A stretch of DNA of 44,908 nt, from positions 1-44,908 of IMG/VR virus record IMGVR_UViG_3300048796_000033. One strand, given 5' to 3'. Under the pieces are notes generated by a model. It made no database searches and had not been told where the DNA came from. It saw only the letters and a list, made by a program, of their open reading frames with translations. A program made the position numbers and the translations under genes. Positions 2,461 to 11,742 of this stretch are shown here, piece by piece; position 1 is the first letter of the stretch; each line of letters begins with the position of its first letter. Source of the DNA: a virus (Duplodnaviria > Caudoviricetes).

Positions 2461-2895
2461 TCAACCCATCAACTTCTGATACTGACGCGCAGCCTCGAGC
2501 GGATCGGTCGTCGTTAACTGGACGGATATGCCTGCATGTTGAATCGGGCCACCGTTCAAGCCGGTTTGCTCGACGACAGACACTTCTTTCCAGCCGGCAC
2601 GACACTTGAGCCAGAATATCGCAGCCGATACGCTGGCCTTACCGTCGCCCATCGCTTTCAAATAGAGCGAGCGGGCAACCATGGCGTTCGCCGTCGACAT
2701 GCCGTCGTCCAGCTCGGCACGGAAATGTAAGCGCAAGGTTTTCTCGTCAATGGGTTTGCCGGTCGCTGGATTGACGAGCTGGCGACACACAAGGTCTTGC
2801 GGCATCCCACACGCGACGGCCACACGTACATTGTCGCGCTGTGACTGGGTGGGTTCAAACGGCGGGTTGCGCGGTGCGGCATATTTTTTAGTCAT
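2461..2895 (-). CDS. terS: Terminase small subunit
   Basis: Directly upstream of terL; DEKTLRLHFRAEL, AAIFWLKCRAGWKE and GLNGGPIQ are typical of TerS. Confidence 0.8.
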   Translation of the reverse strand: MTKKYAAPRNPPFEPTQSQRDNVRVAVACGMPQDLVCRQLVNPATGKPIDEKTLRLHFRAELDDGMSTANAMVARSLYLKAMGDGKASVSAAIFWLKCRAGWKEVSVVEQTGLNGGPIQHAGISVQLTTTDPLEAARQYQKLMG

Positions 2896-4063
2896 TTTCG
2901 AGCGTCGCTTTCTTGCCGGTGAATTGTTCCCAGCGCTTCACTATAACATCGACATAGCGCGGGTCAAGTTCCATGAGCCGAGCGACCCGGCCGGTCTTCT
3001 CGCACGCGATCAACGTCGAGCCGCTGCCGCCGAACAGGTCAAGCACGACGTCGCCGCCTTTTGAACTGTTCGTCAGAGCCTTGGCCACGAGTTCTACCGG
3101 TTTGGGCGTGGTGTGGCCTTCGACCCGTTCCTTATCGAAGCGCCAGACGCTCGTCTGCTTTCGATCCGAGTGCCAGGAATGGGCGCCGTTATCCATCCAA
3201 CCATACAGGCACGGCTCGTGCTGACTTTGGTAATCGGTCCGGGACAGTGCCAGGGAATTCTTGGCCCAAATAATCATTGAGCTGAAATGAAAGAATTCGC
3301 GGAACACAGTGTGAAATATGTCGGCGCAACGATCCGAGTGGAACACGTATATAGAAGCGCCCGACTTGGCCGAAGCCAGGTAGTTACCGAACGCGCCCCT
3401 TAATAGATCCGTCAGGCCGCCCCGGTCATCGTTCTTGATGCCTTCATAGTCGACGCCATACGGCGGGTCTGTAAAGATCATGTCAGCCTTTACGCCAGAC
3501 ATAAGGCGGTCCGCGGCGTCAATATCGGTCGCGTCGCCACAACCTACCCGGTGCTGGCCACAAAGCCACACATCGCCCAATTTAGCGACCGGGTCAGCCA
3601 GGACCGGCGGCACGTCGTCCTCGTCGGTTTCACCTGGCGGCAACTCTTCAGGCATGAGTTGTGACAATTCGTCGTCACTAAAGCCGAGCAATGTCAGGTC
3701 GAACCCGCCGTCTCCCAAGCCGATCAACTCGGCTCGCAACAGGTCCGCGTCCCACCCGGCATTTAGCGCCAGTTTATTATCCGCTATTACATACGCCCGC
3801 TTTTGCTCGTCCGTCAAACCCCCTAGCACGATGCACGGTACCAGGTCAATGCCACGCAGCTCGGCAGCCATATCCCGGCCATGCCCCGCGATAATCTCGC
3901 ACAACTCGTCAATCAGTATCGGATTAGTCCAGCCGAACGCGTCCAGGCTTCGGGCAATCTGTTCCACTTGCTCAACACTGTGCGTTCTGGAATTGGTCGG
4001 ACGCCGTACGAGCGATGCGCGCGGCAAGTATAAAATATTTAAAAGGCGGGAAGTTTGGTCCAT
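2888..4063 (-). CDS. ParB-like N-terminal domain fused to an N6/N4 DNA methyltransferase (beta class)
   Basis: ParB-like IIAGHGR and YVIADNKL; catalytic FTDPPY; HTTPKP; SAM-binding DLFGGSGST. Confidence 0.9.
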   Translation of the reverse strand: MDQTSRLLNILYLPRASLVRRPTNSRTHSVEQVEQIARSLDAFGWTNPILIDELCEIIAGHGRDMAAELRGIDLVPCIVLGGLTDEQKRAYVIADNKLALNAGWDADLLRAELIGLGDGGFDLTLLGFSDDELSQLMPEELPPGETDEDDVPPVLADPVAKLGDVWLCGQHRVGCGDATDIDAADRLMSGVKADMIFTDPPYGVDYEGIKNDDRGGLTDLLRGAFGNYLASAKSGASIYVFHSDRCADIFHTVFREFFHFSSMIIWAKNSLALSRTDYQSQHEPCLYGWMDNGAHSWHSDRKQTSVWRFDKERVEGHTTPKPVELVAKALTNSSKGGDVVLDLFGGSGSTLIACEKTGRVARLMELDPRYVDVIVKRWEQFTGKKATLEND

Positions 4064-6242: not shown

Positions 6243-7028
6243 TCAATGATTGATTCTGGGTCTATCCGCTCCAGCGATGCGCTTGATGGCAATTTCAAAA
6301 TATCCCGCGTTAATTTCCATGCCGATAAACTTTCGGCCAGTGTTCACGCAGGCGACGCCTGTTGTGCCGCTACCCATGCAGTTGTCGAGGACTGTGTCGC
6401 CTGCGTTTGTGTATGTGCGGATTAGGTATTCCATTAGGGAGACTGGTTTTTGTGTTGGGTGAAGTTTCAATAGTCGGTTGTCTTTAGCAAATTTTAATAC
6501 GCTACGCGGGTACCTAGACGATGATTCGTACGCGCCTCTGATAGCTGTTGATTTACTGTAGTTAGGGCCGTGCGAAGCGTAAGAAGCGTTAACACGTTTA
6601 ATAGTATGTCCTGCAGTCATTTCTGGATTATAAATTGGCTGCTTTTTATAAAAAACTAAAATGTTTTCGTGCGCTTTTAACGGTGACTTTTTCGCGTTTA
6701 AAAAACCTGTTGCTGCAGTCTTCTCCCATATCCATTCATAACGCAATAAATCTATCTGAGAAGCACCAAGCACTTTATCAAATGGTGTCTGCGCAGTGAG
6801 AACGATTGCGCCACTGCAGATACGCTTGTACTCTTTCCATAGAGCGTCCAACTGCAAAACGCTGTCCCACTTATTGCGCGTGGTACCATACGGCAAATCA
6901 CACAAGATCATATCAACGCTGGCGTCTGGGATTGATTTCATCAACTCTAAGCAGTCGCCTCGGTGTAATTTGATAGTCAATTTATTTCCCAGATAAACCC
7001 TATCCGGCAAGTTTTGGTTATTGGTCAT
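6243..7028 (-). CDS. N6-adenine/N4-cytosine DNA methyltransferase (beta class)
   Basis: GDCLELM, CDLPYG, HPTQKPV and DNCMGSGTTG motifs; AAGGAG SD; visibly AT-rich. Confidence 0.93.
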   Translation of the reverse strand: MTNNQNLPDRVYLGNKLTIKLHRGDCLELMKSIPDASVDMILCDLPYGTTRNKWDSVLQLDALWKEYKRICSGAIVLTAQTPFDKVLGASQIDLLRYEWIWEKTAATGFLNAKKSPLKAHENILVFYKKQPIYNPEMTAGHTIKRVNASYASHGPNYSKSTAIRGAYESSSRYPRSVLKFAKDNRLLKLHPTQKPVSLMEYLIRTYTNAGDTVLDNCMGSGTTGVACVNTGRKFIGMEINAGYFEIAIKRIAGADRPRINH

Positions 7029-7099: not shown

Positions 7100-9466
7100 T
7101 CATTTCGATACTCCCTGTAAATTGCGGCTCATGGCCGCTTGTTGTGCTACGGAATAGGTGTAGGCCACGAGTGCCGGGTCGAGCAATTCGGAGGCGGGCG
7201 TGTCGGTCTTGACGTACAGTACCGGCCGCGTAGAGTCTGGCGACACGTCCGAAGTGGTACGCCCGCCAGGCAACGCGCGGTGTACTTCATAGCCGAGGCG
7301 CCCGAGTGTTTCCTTGATTTTAAGCGCGGACATAGGCTTATCGAGCCGGCGCTTAAGCATGACGACCGACACAAACCCGCCGCAAAAGCCCGGCTCTTGC
7401 AGCTCGACCCACTCTTGCAAATCTTGCTCGACACCGGTGCGGCCATCCTCGATCGCTTCCAATGTGGCCGACGTGCGCGGGGCTTCCTGGCAGCGGCCGC
7501 CTGGGTTGAAACGTGGGTCAATCTCGACGGTGTGTAAATACTCGGTAATGTAGGCGTAGCCGCCCGACTCGAGCCAGGGGATAAACTCGTCAGCAAAGAA
7601 TGCCTCGGATAGACCGTCGGCGGCGCGAGTTCGTTTATTTTGTTGCGCGCAGTATAAGGTAGCAATGCGGCGGGAGTCTTCAGTAATACTCATGCCGTCG
7701 CGATGGTTGTCGGTAAAAATCCAATTGCCGCAGATGTGCTTTTGTATAGAGTCGATACCTTTGTACGTAACCGGTTGCTCAGGCTCAGTGATTAAGCTTT
7801 TGAGCGCTTCCATCGTAGTGGTGCGGTCTTTAAGAGTGTAGATATCGTCAGCCACGTAGAGCAGGTTGTTTTCCATCCAGCCGTTGAACCCGTTTTCGAT
7901 CATGGGCGCTTTAACGTTGAAAACATATTTGTCGCCGAGTGCGCGACGTAAGCATTTAATAATCAAGCTTTTTCCGTTACCCTCGGTACCCTGTAGGAAG
8001 ATAGCCCAACGGAATTTGATTCCTTTGTATTGAACGACGGCGGCCAAGTAGGAAAGTAGAATTACCGCGTCGTCACCTTTCGGCAACAGTTTTTTAAGCA
8101 AATTCAGGAAGGGGGTAACGTCACCGACGCGACGGTCAACGGTCGCTTCTTTATAGACATTCACCCAGTCCCGTTCCCCCCGCGTGATGACCGTTTGAAA
8201 GGGCATATCAGGACGGAAACAGGTACCCTCGACGTGAGGGAAAGCAACGGCTTGATTCTCTAAAAATGCGGCCCATGGGTCAGTAGTAGTTTTGTCGTTC
8301 ATTGCGTCCATACAATACGACTTGCCTGCGAATCGCGCCTTGAATCGGCCCTGGTCCACAATGTCGCCATTCGGAAGCAATACCCCGTGATGGTCCTGCA
8401 CGTAGATGCATCCCTTGAATACTTCGGCCAGGCCGTCCACGTTGATAAACCCACTATCAGTGCGCGCGACGGCCACACGGATAGCGCCGGTTTGCTTTTC
8501 CGCGACGAGAGGTTTGTCGATCAATACGCCGCCGGCATGCGCGGCACACGCCTTGAGGATGGTCGTGGTCATGTAATCGTCGCGCTCCCACTTCTCACGC
8601 GCCAGTCCGGACAGACGCATCATTCGGTCGATACGTTCACAGTTTTTGCCAGTCCAGAAGGCCAACTGCATCGCCAGGGCAGAGTCGGCCGCCGAGCCGT
8701 CGTAAGGGTCGACCCCGTTGCCGTCAGGAGGGAAGGCCAGCGCCAGGCGGTCAAGGTCGCGGTTCCATAGATCCGCAAAGGTGGCACGTATCGTACCAAT
8801 GTCGCCGAGCTTAGACGAGGTGCGCAGGGCGCGTTCAATGATCCGAGCGTCACTATCCGCACAGTACCAGCCGTCGCAGCCTTCAGTCGTCCAGGTTTGC
8901 GGCGTGTCGGCGCTTCCTTCGAGGCGTAGCCATTTGTCCGTGATGGCCGACAGAGCAGAGGTGTGGACGGTACCCGCGTTGCCGATAATGCCGGTACCGG
9001 TGAGCGCCACAAAGCGCTTTTCCGTGTACAAGTCAAAGAGCTTGTTGGTTATGTCCTTTTTGCGACGATGCGTCGGCGCGACACCGATACCGATGATGTG
9101 GAGACCGCGACCTGACTGAGATATTTCGACGGCGGCGCCAGGGAGTCGGCCACACAGTTCGTGAACGATGGGTGTCCACTGGCCGGAGGCGTCAAGACAG
9201 TTATCGACGTCAATAAAGAAAAAAGGGTCTTGCTCGGTGAAGGTAAAGCCAACGCCATAACTGTCGCCCCACGCCGTCGCAGTACGACACGCGGTCGCCG
9301 CGTCAGTCCAGATGGCCGGATCGTGCGCGTCGTGCTTGCTGCCCGTGAGTGGGTGCAGCGGGTACTTAAAAGTCTTGCCGGGTTTGTCTGGGTCGGGCAC
9401 GAATTGACAGACAATAAATTGCCGGTAGAGCGCCAATGGCGCCAGTGCCTCGGGGAGAAATTGCAT
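7100..9466 (-). CDS. Primase-polymerase (AEP) fused to an SF3 helicase (NrS-1/D5-like)
   Basis: FIDVD and SQSGRGLH AEP motifs; LAFWTGKNCERIDRM helical domain; Walker A GTEGNGKS; likely start MQFLPEAL at 9466. Confidence 0.9.
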   Translation of the reverse strand: MQFLPEALAPLALYRQFIVCQFVPDPDKPGKTFKYPLHPLTGSKHDAHDPAIWTDAATACRTATAWGDSYGVGFTFTEQDPFFFIDVDNCLDASGQWTPIVHELCGRLPGAAVEISQSGRGLHIIGIGVAPTHRRKKDITNKLFDLYTEKRFVALTGTGIIGNAGTVHTSALSAITDKWLRLEGSADTPQTWTTEGCDGWYCADSDARIIERALRTSSKLGDIGTIRATFADLWNRDLDRLALAFPPDGNGVDPYDGSAADSALAMQLAFWTGKNCERIDRMMRLSGLAREKWERDDYMTTTILKACAAHAGGVLIDKPLVAEKQTGAIRVAVARTDSGFINVDGLAEVFKGCIYVQDHHGVLLPNGDIVDQGRFKARFAGKSYCMDAMNDKTTTDPWAAFLENQAVAFPHVEGTCFRPDMPFQTVITRGERDWVNVYKEATVDRRVGDVTPFLNLLKKLLPKGDDAVILLSYLAAVVQYKGIKFRWAIFLQGTEGNGKSLIIKCLRRALGDKYVFNVKAPMIENGFNGWMENNLLYVADDIYTLKDRTTTMEALKSLITEPEQPVTYKGIDSIQKHICGNWIFTDNHRDGMSITEDSRRIATLYCAQQNKRTRAADGLSEAFFADEFIPWLESGGYAYITEYLHTVEIDPRFNPGGRCQEAPRTSATLEAIEDGRTGVEQDLQEWVELQEPGFCGGFVSVVMLKRRLDKPMSALKIKETLGRLGYEVHRALPGGRTTSDVSPDSTRPVLYVKTDTPASELLDPALVAYTYSVAQQAAMSRNLQGVSK

Positions 9467-9480
9467 TATGTGCGTCCCGG

Positions 9481-9768
9481 TCAGATAAGAGAGGCGCGGG
9501 CCAGGACTTTCAAATCTTCCGGTGCGTGAGACGCTCGGGGGTCTTTCGCCGCCATCCCTTGCGCCACAATCTCGGGTATACGTTGCGCGATGGCGGCGCC
9601 CATGACCGCCCGTTGTAACATTTTCATGGTGGAGAAATGGTAATTGACGAGGCCACACGATATGCCGAGCGCCGCCGCCACCTTTTCGCGCCGGATATTC
9701 TGGTACCCGTCCGCTTTCGCGTGCTGGATTGCCATGTCGAGAATTGCGGTTTTATTTTTGTTAGACAT
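9481..9768 (-). CDS. TetR-like HTH DNA-binding protein
   Basis: AILDMA...GYQNIRREKVAAALGISCGLVNYHF matches the TetR N-terminal HTH. Confidence 0.8.
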   Translation of the reverse strand: MSNKNKTAILDMAIQHAKADGYQNIRREKVAAALGISCGLVNYHFSTMKMLQRAVMGAAIAQRIPEIVAQGMAAKDPRASHAPEDLKVLARASLI

Positions 9769-11263
9769 TTAAATAGCTTTCGATAAAGACTTGAGCTTGG
9801 ATAGCATTGATGGCGTTTCCGTAGGCGCGTGTTTTCCCCGATCTGTTGCTTATGTTTTTCGCAAGAGGGAAGGTATCGCAGGCATTCTTGAGTTTGGTTT
9901 CAGGCCAAGCCGAACATGCGTTTTGTGCCAGAATTGATGACAGTAAATGCAGAGGGTCTGTAGATTCTCGTCGGTATTGTTCGTCCAGTTCTCGTCTACG
10001 TGATGCACCTGTAGACGAGTCGTCGTACCACAACACTCGCAGGAGGGTTTCCGTTTCTTGCGGGCTTGGGCGTGAAATGCCTTGCGAGACAATCCCCCTT
10101 TGAGTCTCGAATTGGCGCAAGAAAGCGAGCAAAACCGGCGCTTCAAGTACGCTTGAAAGTCTTCCAGTCTCCCTGACTCGTTGCGCTTCCGGCTCAAGCG
10201 AGCGTCGCACATCAGACAACGCTTTTCCGATGTTTCTTTGATGTTCTATCGACCAGTCATTTATTTCTTTCTCGATTTTTTCAACGGTTCCGGGGCACAG
10301 TTCCCCCAGGCTTCGGGTAGACCCATCAACCATCTGCTTAAAGCCGGGTTGAACGGGGCGCCAGTAACCGTCTCGACAGGGAATCCAATCGGCGGCGGCC
10401 CAATAACCTCGGGTTGCTCCGTACTGCCGTGCGAGTCTGGAAACCCTCTCTTGTTCGCTCTCGGTGTTGACCATTCCAACAAGTTCCGGACGCTGTCCGT
10501 ATATCGATTGTTCCCCGCCTGATGACCGTTCGTATTGCTCGGACATGTCGGCGTGTTCCACGCTGCCAGAAACGCCTGCCTCGGCAACTGATCCGCTCGT
10601 TCTTTTCCGTCGCGCTGCGCAGTCATCCCCGGCGAGTCGGGACTGGAAGGACTCGCCGGGGTCACCCAGCTTGCTAAGGCAACTATCTGAGTTAGGGGTT
10701 TCCCTGAATCTTGAGGTCGAGCATCTTTCACACCCCGTGTCGCATCCTGAACAGTTGGGGTCGGCCACCCAGTAAGCGCGCTCTCTTCGATGCGGCCCCC
10801 CGACGCTACAAGACGGGAATGCGATCGCCCCGAAGGCATAACCCACGGCTTCCAGGTCAGTTTGTACAAGGTCGACCCAAGGTTCAACAGCCTTTGCCGC
10901 AACTTGTTCTCCAAAGACGACTGGAGGGTTGCACTGTTCGATGAGGTGATAGAAAGCTGGCCATAAGTGCCGCTCGTCATTGAATCCACCGCCTTTACCT
11001 GCCGAGCTGAAAGGCTGGCACGGGCAACTTCCCGTCCAAACTGGTCGAGAATCTGGCCACCCGGCCCCGCGTAAAGCGAGAGACCAGACGCCGATTCCGG
11101 CAAAGAAGTGGCACTGCGTGTAGCCGATAAGGTCATAGGGGGTAACATCCTCAATACTGCGTTCATCAACGTCGCCGGGAGCAATCAGACCGGCGGCTAT
11201 CAGGTTCCGTAACCATTGCGCGGCGTAAGGGTCAATCTCATTGTAATAGGCACGAGCGCTCAA
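9761..11263 (-). CDS. C5 cytosine DNA methyltransferase, catalytic (alpha-type) polypeptide
   Basis: Motif I FFAGIG, IV GSCPCQPFS, VI GEQV, VIII HRRERAYWV, X RAYGNAI; no motif IX in this frame. Confidence 0.9.
   Translation of the reverse strand: MSARAYYNEIDPYAAQWLRNLIAAGLIAPGDVDERSIEDVTPYDLIGYTQCHFFAGIGVWSLALRGAGWPDSRPVWTGSCPCQPFSSAGKGGGFNDERHLWPAFYHLIEQCNPPVVFGEQVAAKAVEPWVDLVQTDLEAVGYAFGAIAFPSCSVGGPHRRERAYWVADPNCSGCDTGCERCSTSRFRETPNSDSCLSKLGDPGESFQSRLAGDDCAARRKRTSGSVAEAGVSGSVEHADMSEQYERSSGGEQSIYGQRPELVGMVNTESEQERVSRLARQYGATRGYWAAADWIPCRDGYWRPVQPGFKQMVDGSTRSLGELCPGTVEKIEKEINDWSIEHQRNIGKALSDVRRSLEPEAQRVRETGRLSSVLEAPVLLAFLRQFETQRGIVSQGISRPSPQETETLLRVLWYDDSSTGASRRRELDEQYRRESTDPLHLLSSILAQNACSAWPETKLKNACDTFPLAKNISNRSGKTRAYGNAINAIQAQVFIESYLNV
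9850..10260 (-). CDS. HNH endonuclease nested in the +1 frame of the C5 MTase; in-frame TAG at codon 5 (possible pseudogene, or restart at ATG 10212)
   Basis: MTGR*NIKETSEKRCLMC...RRFCSLSC...CECCG...LQVHHVDENWTNNTDENLQTLCIYCHQFWH. Confidence 0.8.
10261..10980 (-). CDS. C5 MTase beta-type polypeptide (TRD modules plus motif IX) in the alternative frame
   Basis: ORF open 11184-10261; four W-x-T-P modules; motif IX-like FNPALSRWLMGLPEAW; candidate ATG 10980 with GGTGGA upstream; M.EcoHK31I-like organisation. Confidence 0.8.
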   Translation of the reverse strand: MTSGTYGQLSITSSNSATLQSSLENKLRQRLLNLGSTLYKLTWKPWVMPSGRSHSRLVASGGRIEESALTGWPTPTVQDATRGVKDARPQDSGKPLTQIVALASWVTPASPSSPDSPGMTAQRDGKERADQLPRQAFLAAWNTPTCPSNTNGHQAGNNRYTDSVRNLLEWSTPRANKRGFPDSHGSTEQPEVIGPPPIGFPVETVTGAPFNPALSRWLMGLPEAWGNCAPEPLKKSRKK

Positions 11264-11742
11264 AGCGTACCCTCACCAGAGCAGAACGCCGCGTCGCCGC
11301 CGAGCGAGATAATAAGTTGCGCCCACTCCAGTTGCGGCCCTTCGCGCGCAGGGTCTTCCCCGAACGTCCAACGAGAATGTTTGCATTCACGCGACACAAA
11401 GCGCCCACGTGGCTGCCCAACCTCGGCTAACGTAATCGGACGAGAGTCAATGCCGATCAGATCGCCGCTCTTGAGGACGGTGTTGCGCGCCTTGGAGTCA
11501 TTCGCCAGTCCGTAGCGCACTGGGCGCCCTGTTAAATCCTTGAGCGCGCCGACATTATTTCGGTATAAGCGGACGCCTTTTATCGCTCCCTCAAGCACGA
11601 CCCGAGATTGCACGCGGCCTTCCGATTCGTCGGTATCGGAACCGTTGAAGGCAGGACGGTCAACGTCGCCCCACATGGCGCGCAGTTCGATCAGAGCGTC
11701 CATGCCTACGTGATGCCGTAAAGCCCATTCATATAAAGTCAT
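11260..11742 (-). CDS. VRR-NUC family nuclease
   Basis: ESEGRVQ, LYRNNVG, SGDLIGI, SRECK, QLEW and GGDAAF motifs. Confidence 0.85.
   Translation of the reverse strand: MTLYEWALRHHVGMDALIELRAMWGDVDRPAFNGSDTDESEGRVQSRVVLEGAIKGVRLYRNNVGALKDLTGRPVRYGLANDSKARNTVLKSGDLIGIDSRPITLAEVGQPRGRFVSRECKHSRWTFGEDPAREGPQLEWAQLIISLGGDAAFCSGEGTL

Follow-up and report, generated by a model that had tools for sequence, protein, structure and literature searches.

Endonuclease genes of the HNH type that lie out of frame within an open methylase frame were described in 2025 in mycobacteriophages (the ShiLan domain, PMC11855218). That account likens the start of the insert to its downstream flank and leaves open how the hidden HNH is translated; related papers are PMC9957025, PMC12613952 and bioRxiv 10.1101/2025.01.02.630785. 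A second relevant group comprises homing endonucleases encoded out of frame in inteins (bioRxiv 10.64898/2026.09.14.751524; 10.1101/2025.01.02.630785), which combine a second-frame endonuclease, purifying selection and an open host frame, as does the locus described here. The intein insert, however, is removed by protein splicing, whereas no splicing domain was found in our locus and its host-frame residues are constrained. The third precedent is M.EcoHK31I (PMC2836561), whose beta subunit is encoded inside the alpha gene in another frame, with the catalytic motifs and motif X in alpha. Our locus is alike in these respects but differs in two: no nested nuclease is described there for M.EcoHK31I, and its target recognition domain (TRD) lies in alpha, whereas here the conserved repeats belong to beta and alpha residues 180-266 are predicted to be disordered in the AlphaFold model.

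The locus lies in a stretch of 44,908 nt (the window), a complete virus record with direct terminal repeats. The phage is contractile-tailed; its genes include those for a terminase, a portal, a sheath and a polymerase, and it has three methylase genes in all, the other two being at 2888-4063 and 6243-7028 (ParB-fused and N6/N4). In the window, two known oddities, an alternative-frame beta chain and a hidden HNH gene, are combined, and the combination is widespread. We consider it likely, at roughly three chances in four, that a 468-nt HNH element, which probably arrived by homing, occupies a two-frame C5 methyltransferase gene at a site where both frames are coding, and that it is read through unspliced.

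With the ShiLan system (PMC11855218 and PMC9957025), the window shares an insertion in a phage methylase, an open host frame, an out-of-frame zinc-finger HNH, a flank-like insert start, the lack of an intron or intein and a patchy distribution. Across the window family, each of the features of the ShiLan type is found: insertion, open host frame, zinc-finger HNH, flank-like start and disjunct distribution. ShiLan gp65, however, is a DPPY amino-methylase with its HNH in frame +2, whereas the window encodes a C5 methylase with its HNH in the +1 frame. Comparison of gp65 with the insert and alpha profiles gave no match, and the HNH core matched at 5 bits only. Homology to the ShiLan element was rejected on these grounds: an amino-methylase host, frame +2 and no profile match past the weak HNH core. 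The window differs further in that both frames of its target were already coding, the duplicated end evidently serves to complete beta, the HNH start adjoins a host stop, and selection on the read-through peptide has been measured.

A two-frame methylase gene and its inserted element

Relatives came from HNH searches: 8 loci at first, followed by 12 genomic loci and by the 80 best each of 117 viral and 167 metagenomic ones. Together with the window and four more, these 185 loci contain 143 distinct HNH cores, which are related sequences rather than 143 independent trials. Occupied alleles were picked by HNH and empty alleles by likeness to the window. Class A (n=108) was assigned by pattern.

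The alpha chain (9761..11263, minus strand) is a C5 cytosine methyltransferase of 500 residues with a 156-residue read-through insert at residues 308-463. Its ORF matches Pfam DNA_methylase (E=1.7e-12) and phrog_363 (E=3e-80), and M.HhaI is the top Foldseek match of its model. An earlier reading of the DNA made from its letters alone (the sequence-only reading) had placed methyltransferase motifs I, IV, VI, VIII and X in this frame, and FAGIG, GSCPCQ, GEQV, PHRRER and a terminal YGNAI are all present. We take FAGIG to be motif I and YGNAI to be the core of motif X; 5' of FAGIG (region of residues 53-58) lies a motif II/III-like segment at 11263-11090, an unusual order. The motif X core (9809..9823, minus strand) is reached solely via read-through of the element, and its flank has diverged in the window (RSGKTR versus the consensus RVGRLR). 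An uninterrupted alpha links motif IV with motif X in 80 of the 91 evaluable class A loci; two carry stops and nine are not resolved by the pattern. In L194, a single alpha-frame stop falls elsewhere between motifs IV and X.

The beta ORF (10261..11184, minus strand) occupies the +1 frame, contains WPTP repeats, ends in a motif-IX-like segment and matches phrog_1008 at E=1.5e-26. Its start is uncertain and may be TTG 11184, ATG 11166 or ATG 10980. As the sequence-only reading had described, the ORF closes with TAA at 10261, and the next base, 10260, begins an ATG. Between motif IV and the IX-like motif, the beta frame is open in 62/62 empty and 47/48 occupied loci; such conservation of a second ORF nested in another frame is as in C5 methyltransferases of the M.EcoHK31I alpha/beta type. 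Beta carries an invariant WLMGxPxxW that resembles the motif IX consensus; comparisons with Pfam, PDB and hhalign profiles did not recognise a motif IX in beta.

Comparison of 61 empty with 65 occupied alleles bears out the proposal that a discrete segment has been inserted, at 156 codons rather than the roughly 140 first suggested. Occupied loci are longer by 154 to 159 codons in 64 cases and by 170 in one. In the window, the element spans 468 nt (9875..10342, minus strand), with boundaries transferred from close occupied/empty pairs, and the insertion point lies directly past the alpha Pro-Gly at residues 306-307. Of four 42-nt stretches compared for conservation, the empty target ranks highest (0.885).

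A 16-codon segment occurs twice in occupied alleles. Measured against the empty-allele profile, the 5' copy resembles it in the beta frame (0.74) more than in the alpha frame (0.34), whereas the 3' copy does so in the alpha frame (0.66) more than in the beta frame (0.37). Stops in the beta frame fall inside the 3' copy in 23 of the 65 occupied alleles and in the equivalent segment of none of the 61 empty ones. In four close pairs, the empty allele tracks the occupied one as far as the alpha Pro-Gly, after which it agrees with the 3' copy, not the 5' copy. The 5' copy is therefore part of the element and replaces the end of beta. The replacement 3' end of beta (10261..10342, minus strand) consists of a recoded 16-codon copy at 10339-10292, a Lys-rich tail and the TAA, while in the host's original copy (9824..9874, minus strand) conservation now lies chiefly in the alpha frame. 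The element-borne replacement of the beta end, the TAG described below and the 2025 precedent had all escaped the sequence-only reading.

The HNH endonuclease gene (9850..10260, minus strand) lies in the +1 frame, with its ATG adjoining the beta stop. Its zinc-binding and catalytic residues are intact; it scores 20.4 bits against Pfam HNH, slightly below the cut-off of 21.4, and matches a PHROG HNH family at E=1.4e-11. The CxxC pairs and the HHxDxxxxNxxxNLxxLCxxCH motif are present as first reported, but the frame is not open: it begins MTGR and stops at a TAG at codon 5 (10246..10248, minus strand), which rules out an intact HNH ORF starting at 10260. The next ATG past this codon is at 10212, within the first CxxC. 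In 17 of the 24 relatives sharing the surrounding motif, the position is a Ser, and among the 108 class A loci the window alone has an early stop; three other loci have stops in the HNH body, and the gene is intact in 104. Because of this in-frame TAG, the window copy is probably decayed, a recent pseudogene. Alpha reads across the position unharmed, and alpha and beta are both intact. Recoding of TAG by the phage is unsupported, since 4 of 33 long ORFs terminate in it, a count that falls short of a full recoding test. A contig from run X1 (depth 20.9) is identical to the window across 9400-11600, including the TAG; it also speaks against mis-assembly, as a single contig that may be the source of the window and so is not independent.

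The HNH start lies 0-3 codons past the beta stop in 93 of the 108 class A loci. Three others have tandem stops before the HNH start, two have a start further off or absent, and nine (L092, L094, L127, L130, L161, L172, L185, L243 and L250) fuse beta to HNH in frame with no intervening stop. In an uncontrolled count, on which we do not rely, 74 of 94 loci had SD-like 4-mers 5' of their HNH start.

Selection on the alpha frame across the HNH gene

The claim that the alpha frame stays open over the HNH gene is upheld: it contains no stop in 131 codons, against 6.5 expected from the codon usage of the phage. A stop-free outcome arose in 98 of 200,000 synonymous resamplings of the window HNH (P about 0.05%), and none of 61 blocks from the phage's own genes was stop-free in the corresponding frame. 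Homologues carrying the HNH might have shown alpha-frame stops; the host (-1) frame is instead stop-free in 139/143 cores, compared with 6 for the +1 frame and 19, 0 and 5 for the reverse frames. Two of the four exceptions, L169 (7 stops) and L175 (6 stops), are free-standing and do not lie in a C5 methylase, and the other two, L217 and L218, are nested copies with one alpha-frame stop each. Overall, 15 host-frame stops were observed versus 627 expected from within-gene synonymous shuffles, and a wobble T in a stop-making context occurs at 2/3189 nested versus 13/52 free-standing positions.

Selection was evaluated on pairs of present-day sequences: 89 of the 143 cores were selected, dereplicated to 83 and arranged as 41 disjoint pairs. 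Firstly, C/T differences silent in HNH were seen at 101/257 sites where alpha is unchanged, 129/958 where alpha is changed and 1/265 where a stop would be created, such that HNH silent sites are about three times less variable where the alpha residue would change. A by-column test of the alpha effect gave 10 vs 37 columns (p=1e-5). Secondly, changes at four-fold sites are conservative for alpha (BLOSUM 1.02 vs 0.26 +/- 0.09). Finally, a small control of 21 pairs of singly coded genes showed no effect (11/58 vs 99/794, p=0.16). Because HNH-silent sites vary less where alpha would change, these codon-level comparisons indicate that selection acts on the 156-residue read-through peptide itself. 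HNH, for its part, has a dN/dS of 0.19 (27 pairs), and its Cys, His and Asn residues are conserved at 98-100% in 89 cores. The naive alpha-frame dN/dS of 1.13 is uninformative within the overlap and adds no independent support; such a value is expected, because silent sites of alpha are second positions of HNH. The two-frame dN/dS and stop-avoidance analysis that the sequence-only reading had suggested thus gives purifying selection on HNH and a stop-avoiding alpha frame.

AlphaFold models the insert as all-helical, with four helices, two of them at a pLDDT of about 85-92, and a disordered middle. A search for fold matches to this model gave nothing meaningful; the best Z of 5.0 is uninformative for a helical bundle.

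Distribution of the element and alternative explanations

A tree of the alpha N-terminal domain was built from 55 occupied and 71 empty loci (126 of 164 having usable, distinct sequence). The occupied or empty label requires 17 changes on this unrooted tree, at least 7 of them forced by well-supported branches, and monophyly of the occupied alleles is rejected (p-AU 3e-6). The nearest relative of the window is an empty allele. Among 48 occupied loci, identity of the methylase N-terminus correlates with that of both flanks (rho 0.31 and 0.38) and not with that of HNH (-0.04). This HNH family is missing in 78 of the 80 top-ranking alpha matches, one of which (L009:2784-3395) has an HNH of a different family at about that position while its alpha frame is open, which suggests a second invasion. 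Non-monophyly, together with HNH divergence that is decoupled from methylase divergence, fits what homing predicts.

Under the favoured reading, HNH would cut or nick the empty site, and the element, which interrupts that site, would be copied in through repair. Beta would be completed by the replacement 3' end of the element, ribosomes terminating beta could reinitiate at the HNH start by translational coupling, and alpha would be made with an extra, partly helical 156-residue loop inside its catalytic chain. In the window copy, HNH would since have decayed through the TAG while alpha and beta were retained. The original idea that a homing-type HNH persists as a tolerated, overprinted insertion is supported by the comparison of empty with occupied alleles, by stop avoidance and residue-level selection in the alpha frame, and by patchy distribution.

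The best-surviving alternative, which we regard as unlikely, is a single old insertion that was later lost precisely, time and again, or overwritten when the locus recombined with empty alleles, with no active homing. Change counts on an unrooted tree do not separate gain from loss and are compatible with this account, and occupied alleles make up most of the deep branches in the sampled tree. An element that is not homing is nevertheless hard to square with an HNH under purifying selection and intact in nearly all class A loci, or with HNH genes 93% identical between methylases that are 66% identical and 49% identical between methylases that are 90% identical.

The sequence-only reading had offered as its alternative that HNH is a nested nuclease working with the methylase; the two would then form a restriction-modification or phage-competition pair. 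The tight coupling of HNH to the beta stop, the nine beta fusions and the purifying selection are what a partner might show, but the gene is missing from most of the best alpha matches, evolves independently of the methylase, has free-standing relatives and is broken in the window while alpha stays open. We consider the partnership very unlikely and find the suggestion unsupported.

Removal of the element by RNA splicing, protein splicing or ribosome bypass appears more improbable again. The window insert folds better than 100/100 shuffles (z -2.4) and the ends of the element resemble each other, but the median folding z across 27 homologues is 0.1, the insert contains no Rfam family, no intein family appeared when the window protein and 92 relatives were scanned with Pfam, and an insert skipped at the RNA level would give selection no reason to act on its alpha residues. 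A conserved RNA structure or group I/II intron is rejected on the Rfam and homologue results, and an intein with a Hint splicing domain in the host frame on the Pfam result and the all-helical model, in keeping with the initial impression of no evident intron or intein. Least probable of all is that motif X is supplied by a third chain from an internal start near the 5' end of the element, where numerous database proteins begin and Met is frequent in the 5' copy, since alpha is unbroken from motif IV to X in 80 of the 91 evaluable class A loci, the Met codons are forced by beta Arg-Trp codons, and even the window gene has a record (P0002) as a fragment with an internal start, a sign of gene-caller behaviour.

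Sister group, relatives and significance

In a sister group (class B), the beta frame crosses HNH and reaches motif X in 21 of 22 loci, and alpha ends 5' of HNH in 20. Motif X is on the other chain in L134, L139-L148, L151, L153, L181, L245, L254-L257, L259 and L262, while in L138 a single frame holds everything. The chain that has to reach motif X is the one that stays open, and this supports read-through. A bolder version of our reading, which we think less likely than not, is that of a splicing-free homing element that repairs both overlapping proteins: it would bring beta a new end, be overprinted by alpha and start its own translation from the beta stop. Its shadow frame may now be a de novo helical domain needed by the methylase, and in the sister lineage the insertion would have moved motif X from alpha to beta and so divided the enzyme anew between its chains.

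Related arrangements occur elsewhere. Staphylococcus phage CUB-EPI_14 gp45 (ON325435, L089:2830-4635; 36% GC) is a single-chain C5 methylase with an open host frame, and an unannotated +1 HNH sits in its variable region. The nested layout also holds in Komagataeibacter phage phiKX1 (L090:2900-4500), where the public annotation has fragments only and misses both the long alpha ORF and the HNH. One free-standing HNH (L175:2180-2641), 62% identical to that of the window, has 6 stops in its shadow frame, in which shadow residues are still recognisable, and is possibly an escaped copy.

A profile of the alpha-frame insert matched 634 protein clusters (50% identity) at E <=0.001 and 219 at <=1e-10. 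DNA_methylase was essentially the sole family in Pfam scans of the 92 longer clusters among the best 150, and the motif-X pattern forms the C-terminus in 140 of those 150. A literature search limited to main texts and to few subscription papers turned up no account of an HNH located within a two-frame methylase and no precedent for a dual-coded target, an element-borne beta end, an HNH start coupled to the beta stop or a sister group with beta read-through.

The resemblance of the insert start to its flank can be explained as repair of the overlapping gene, and the coupling of HNH to a host stop offers a testable answer to the question of translation left by PMC11855218. With 634 clusters matched, an unannotated nuclease is probably hidden in many annotated long phage methylases. 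More generally, the codon-level tests indicate that the unused frame of a selfish gene can be selected as protein, a path to new domains.
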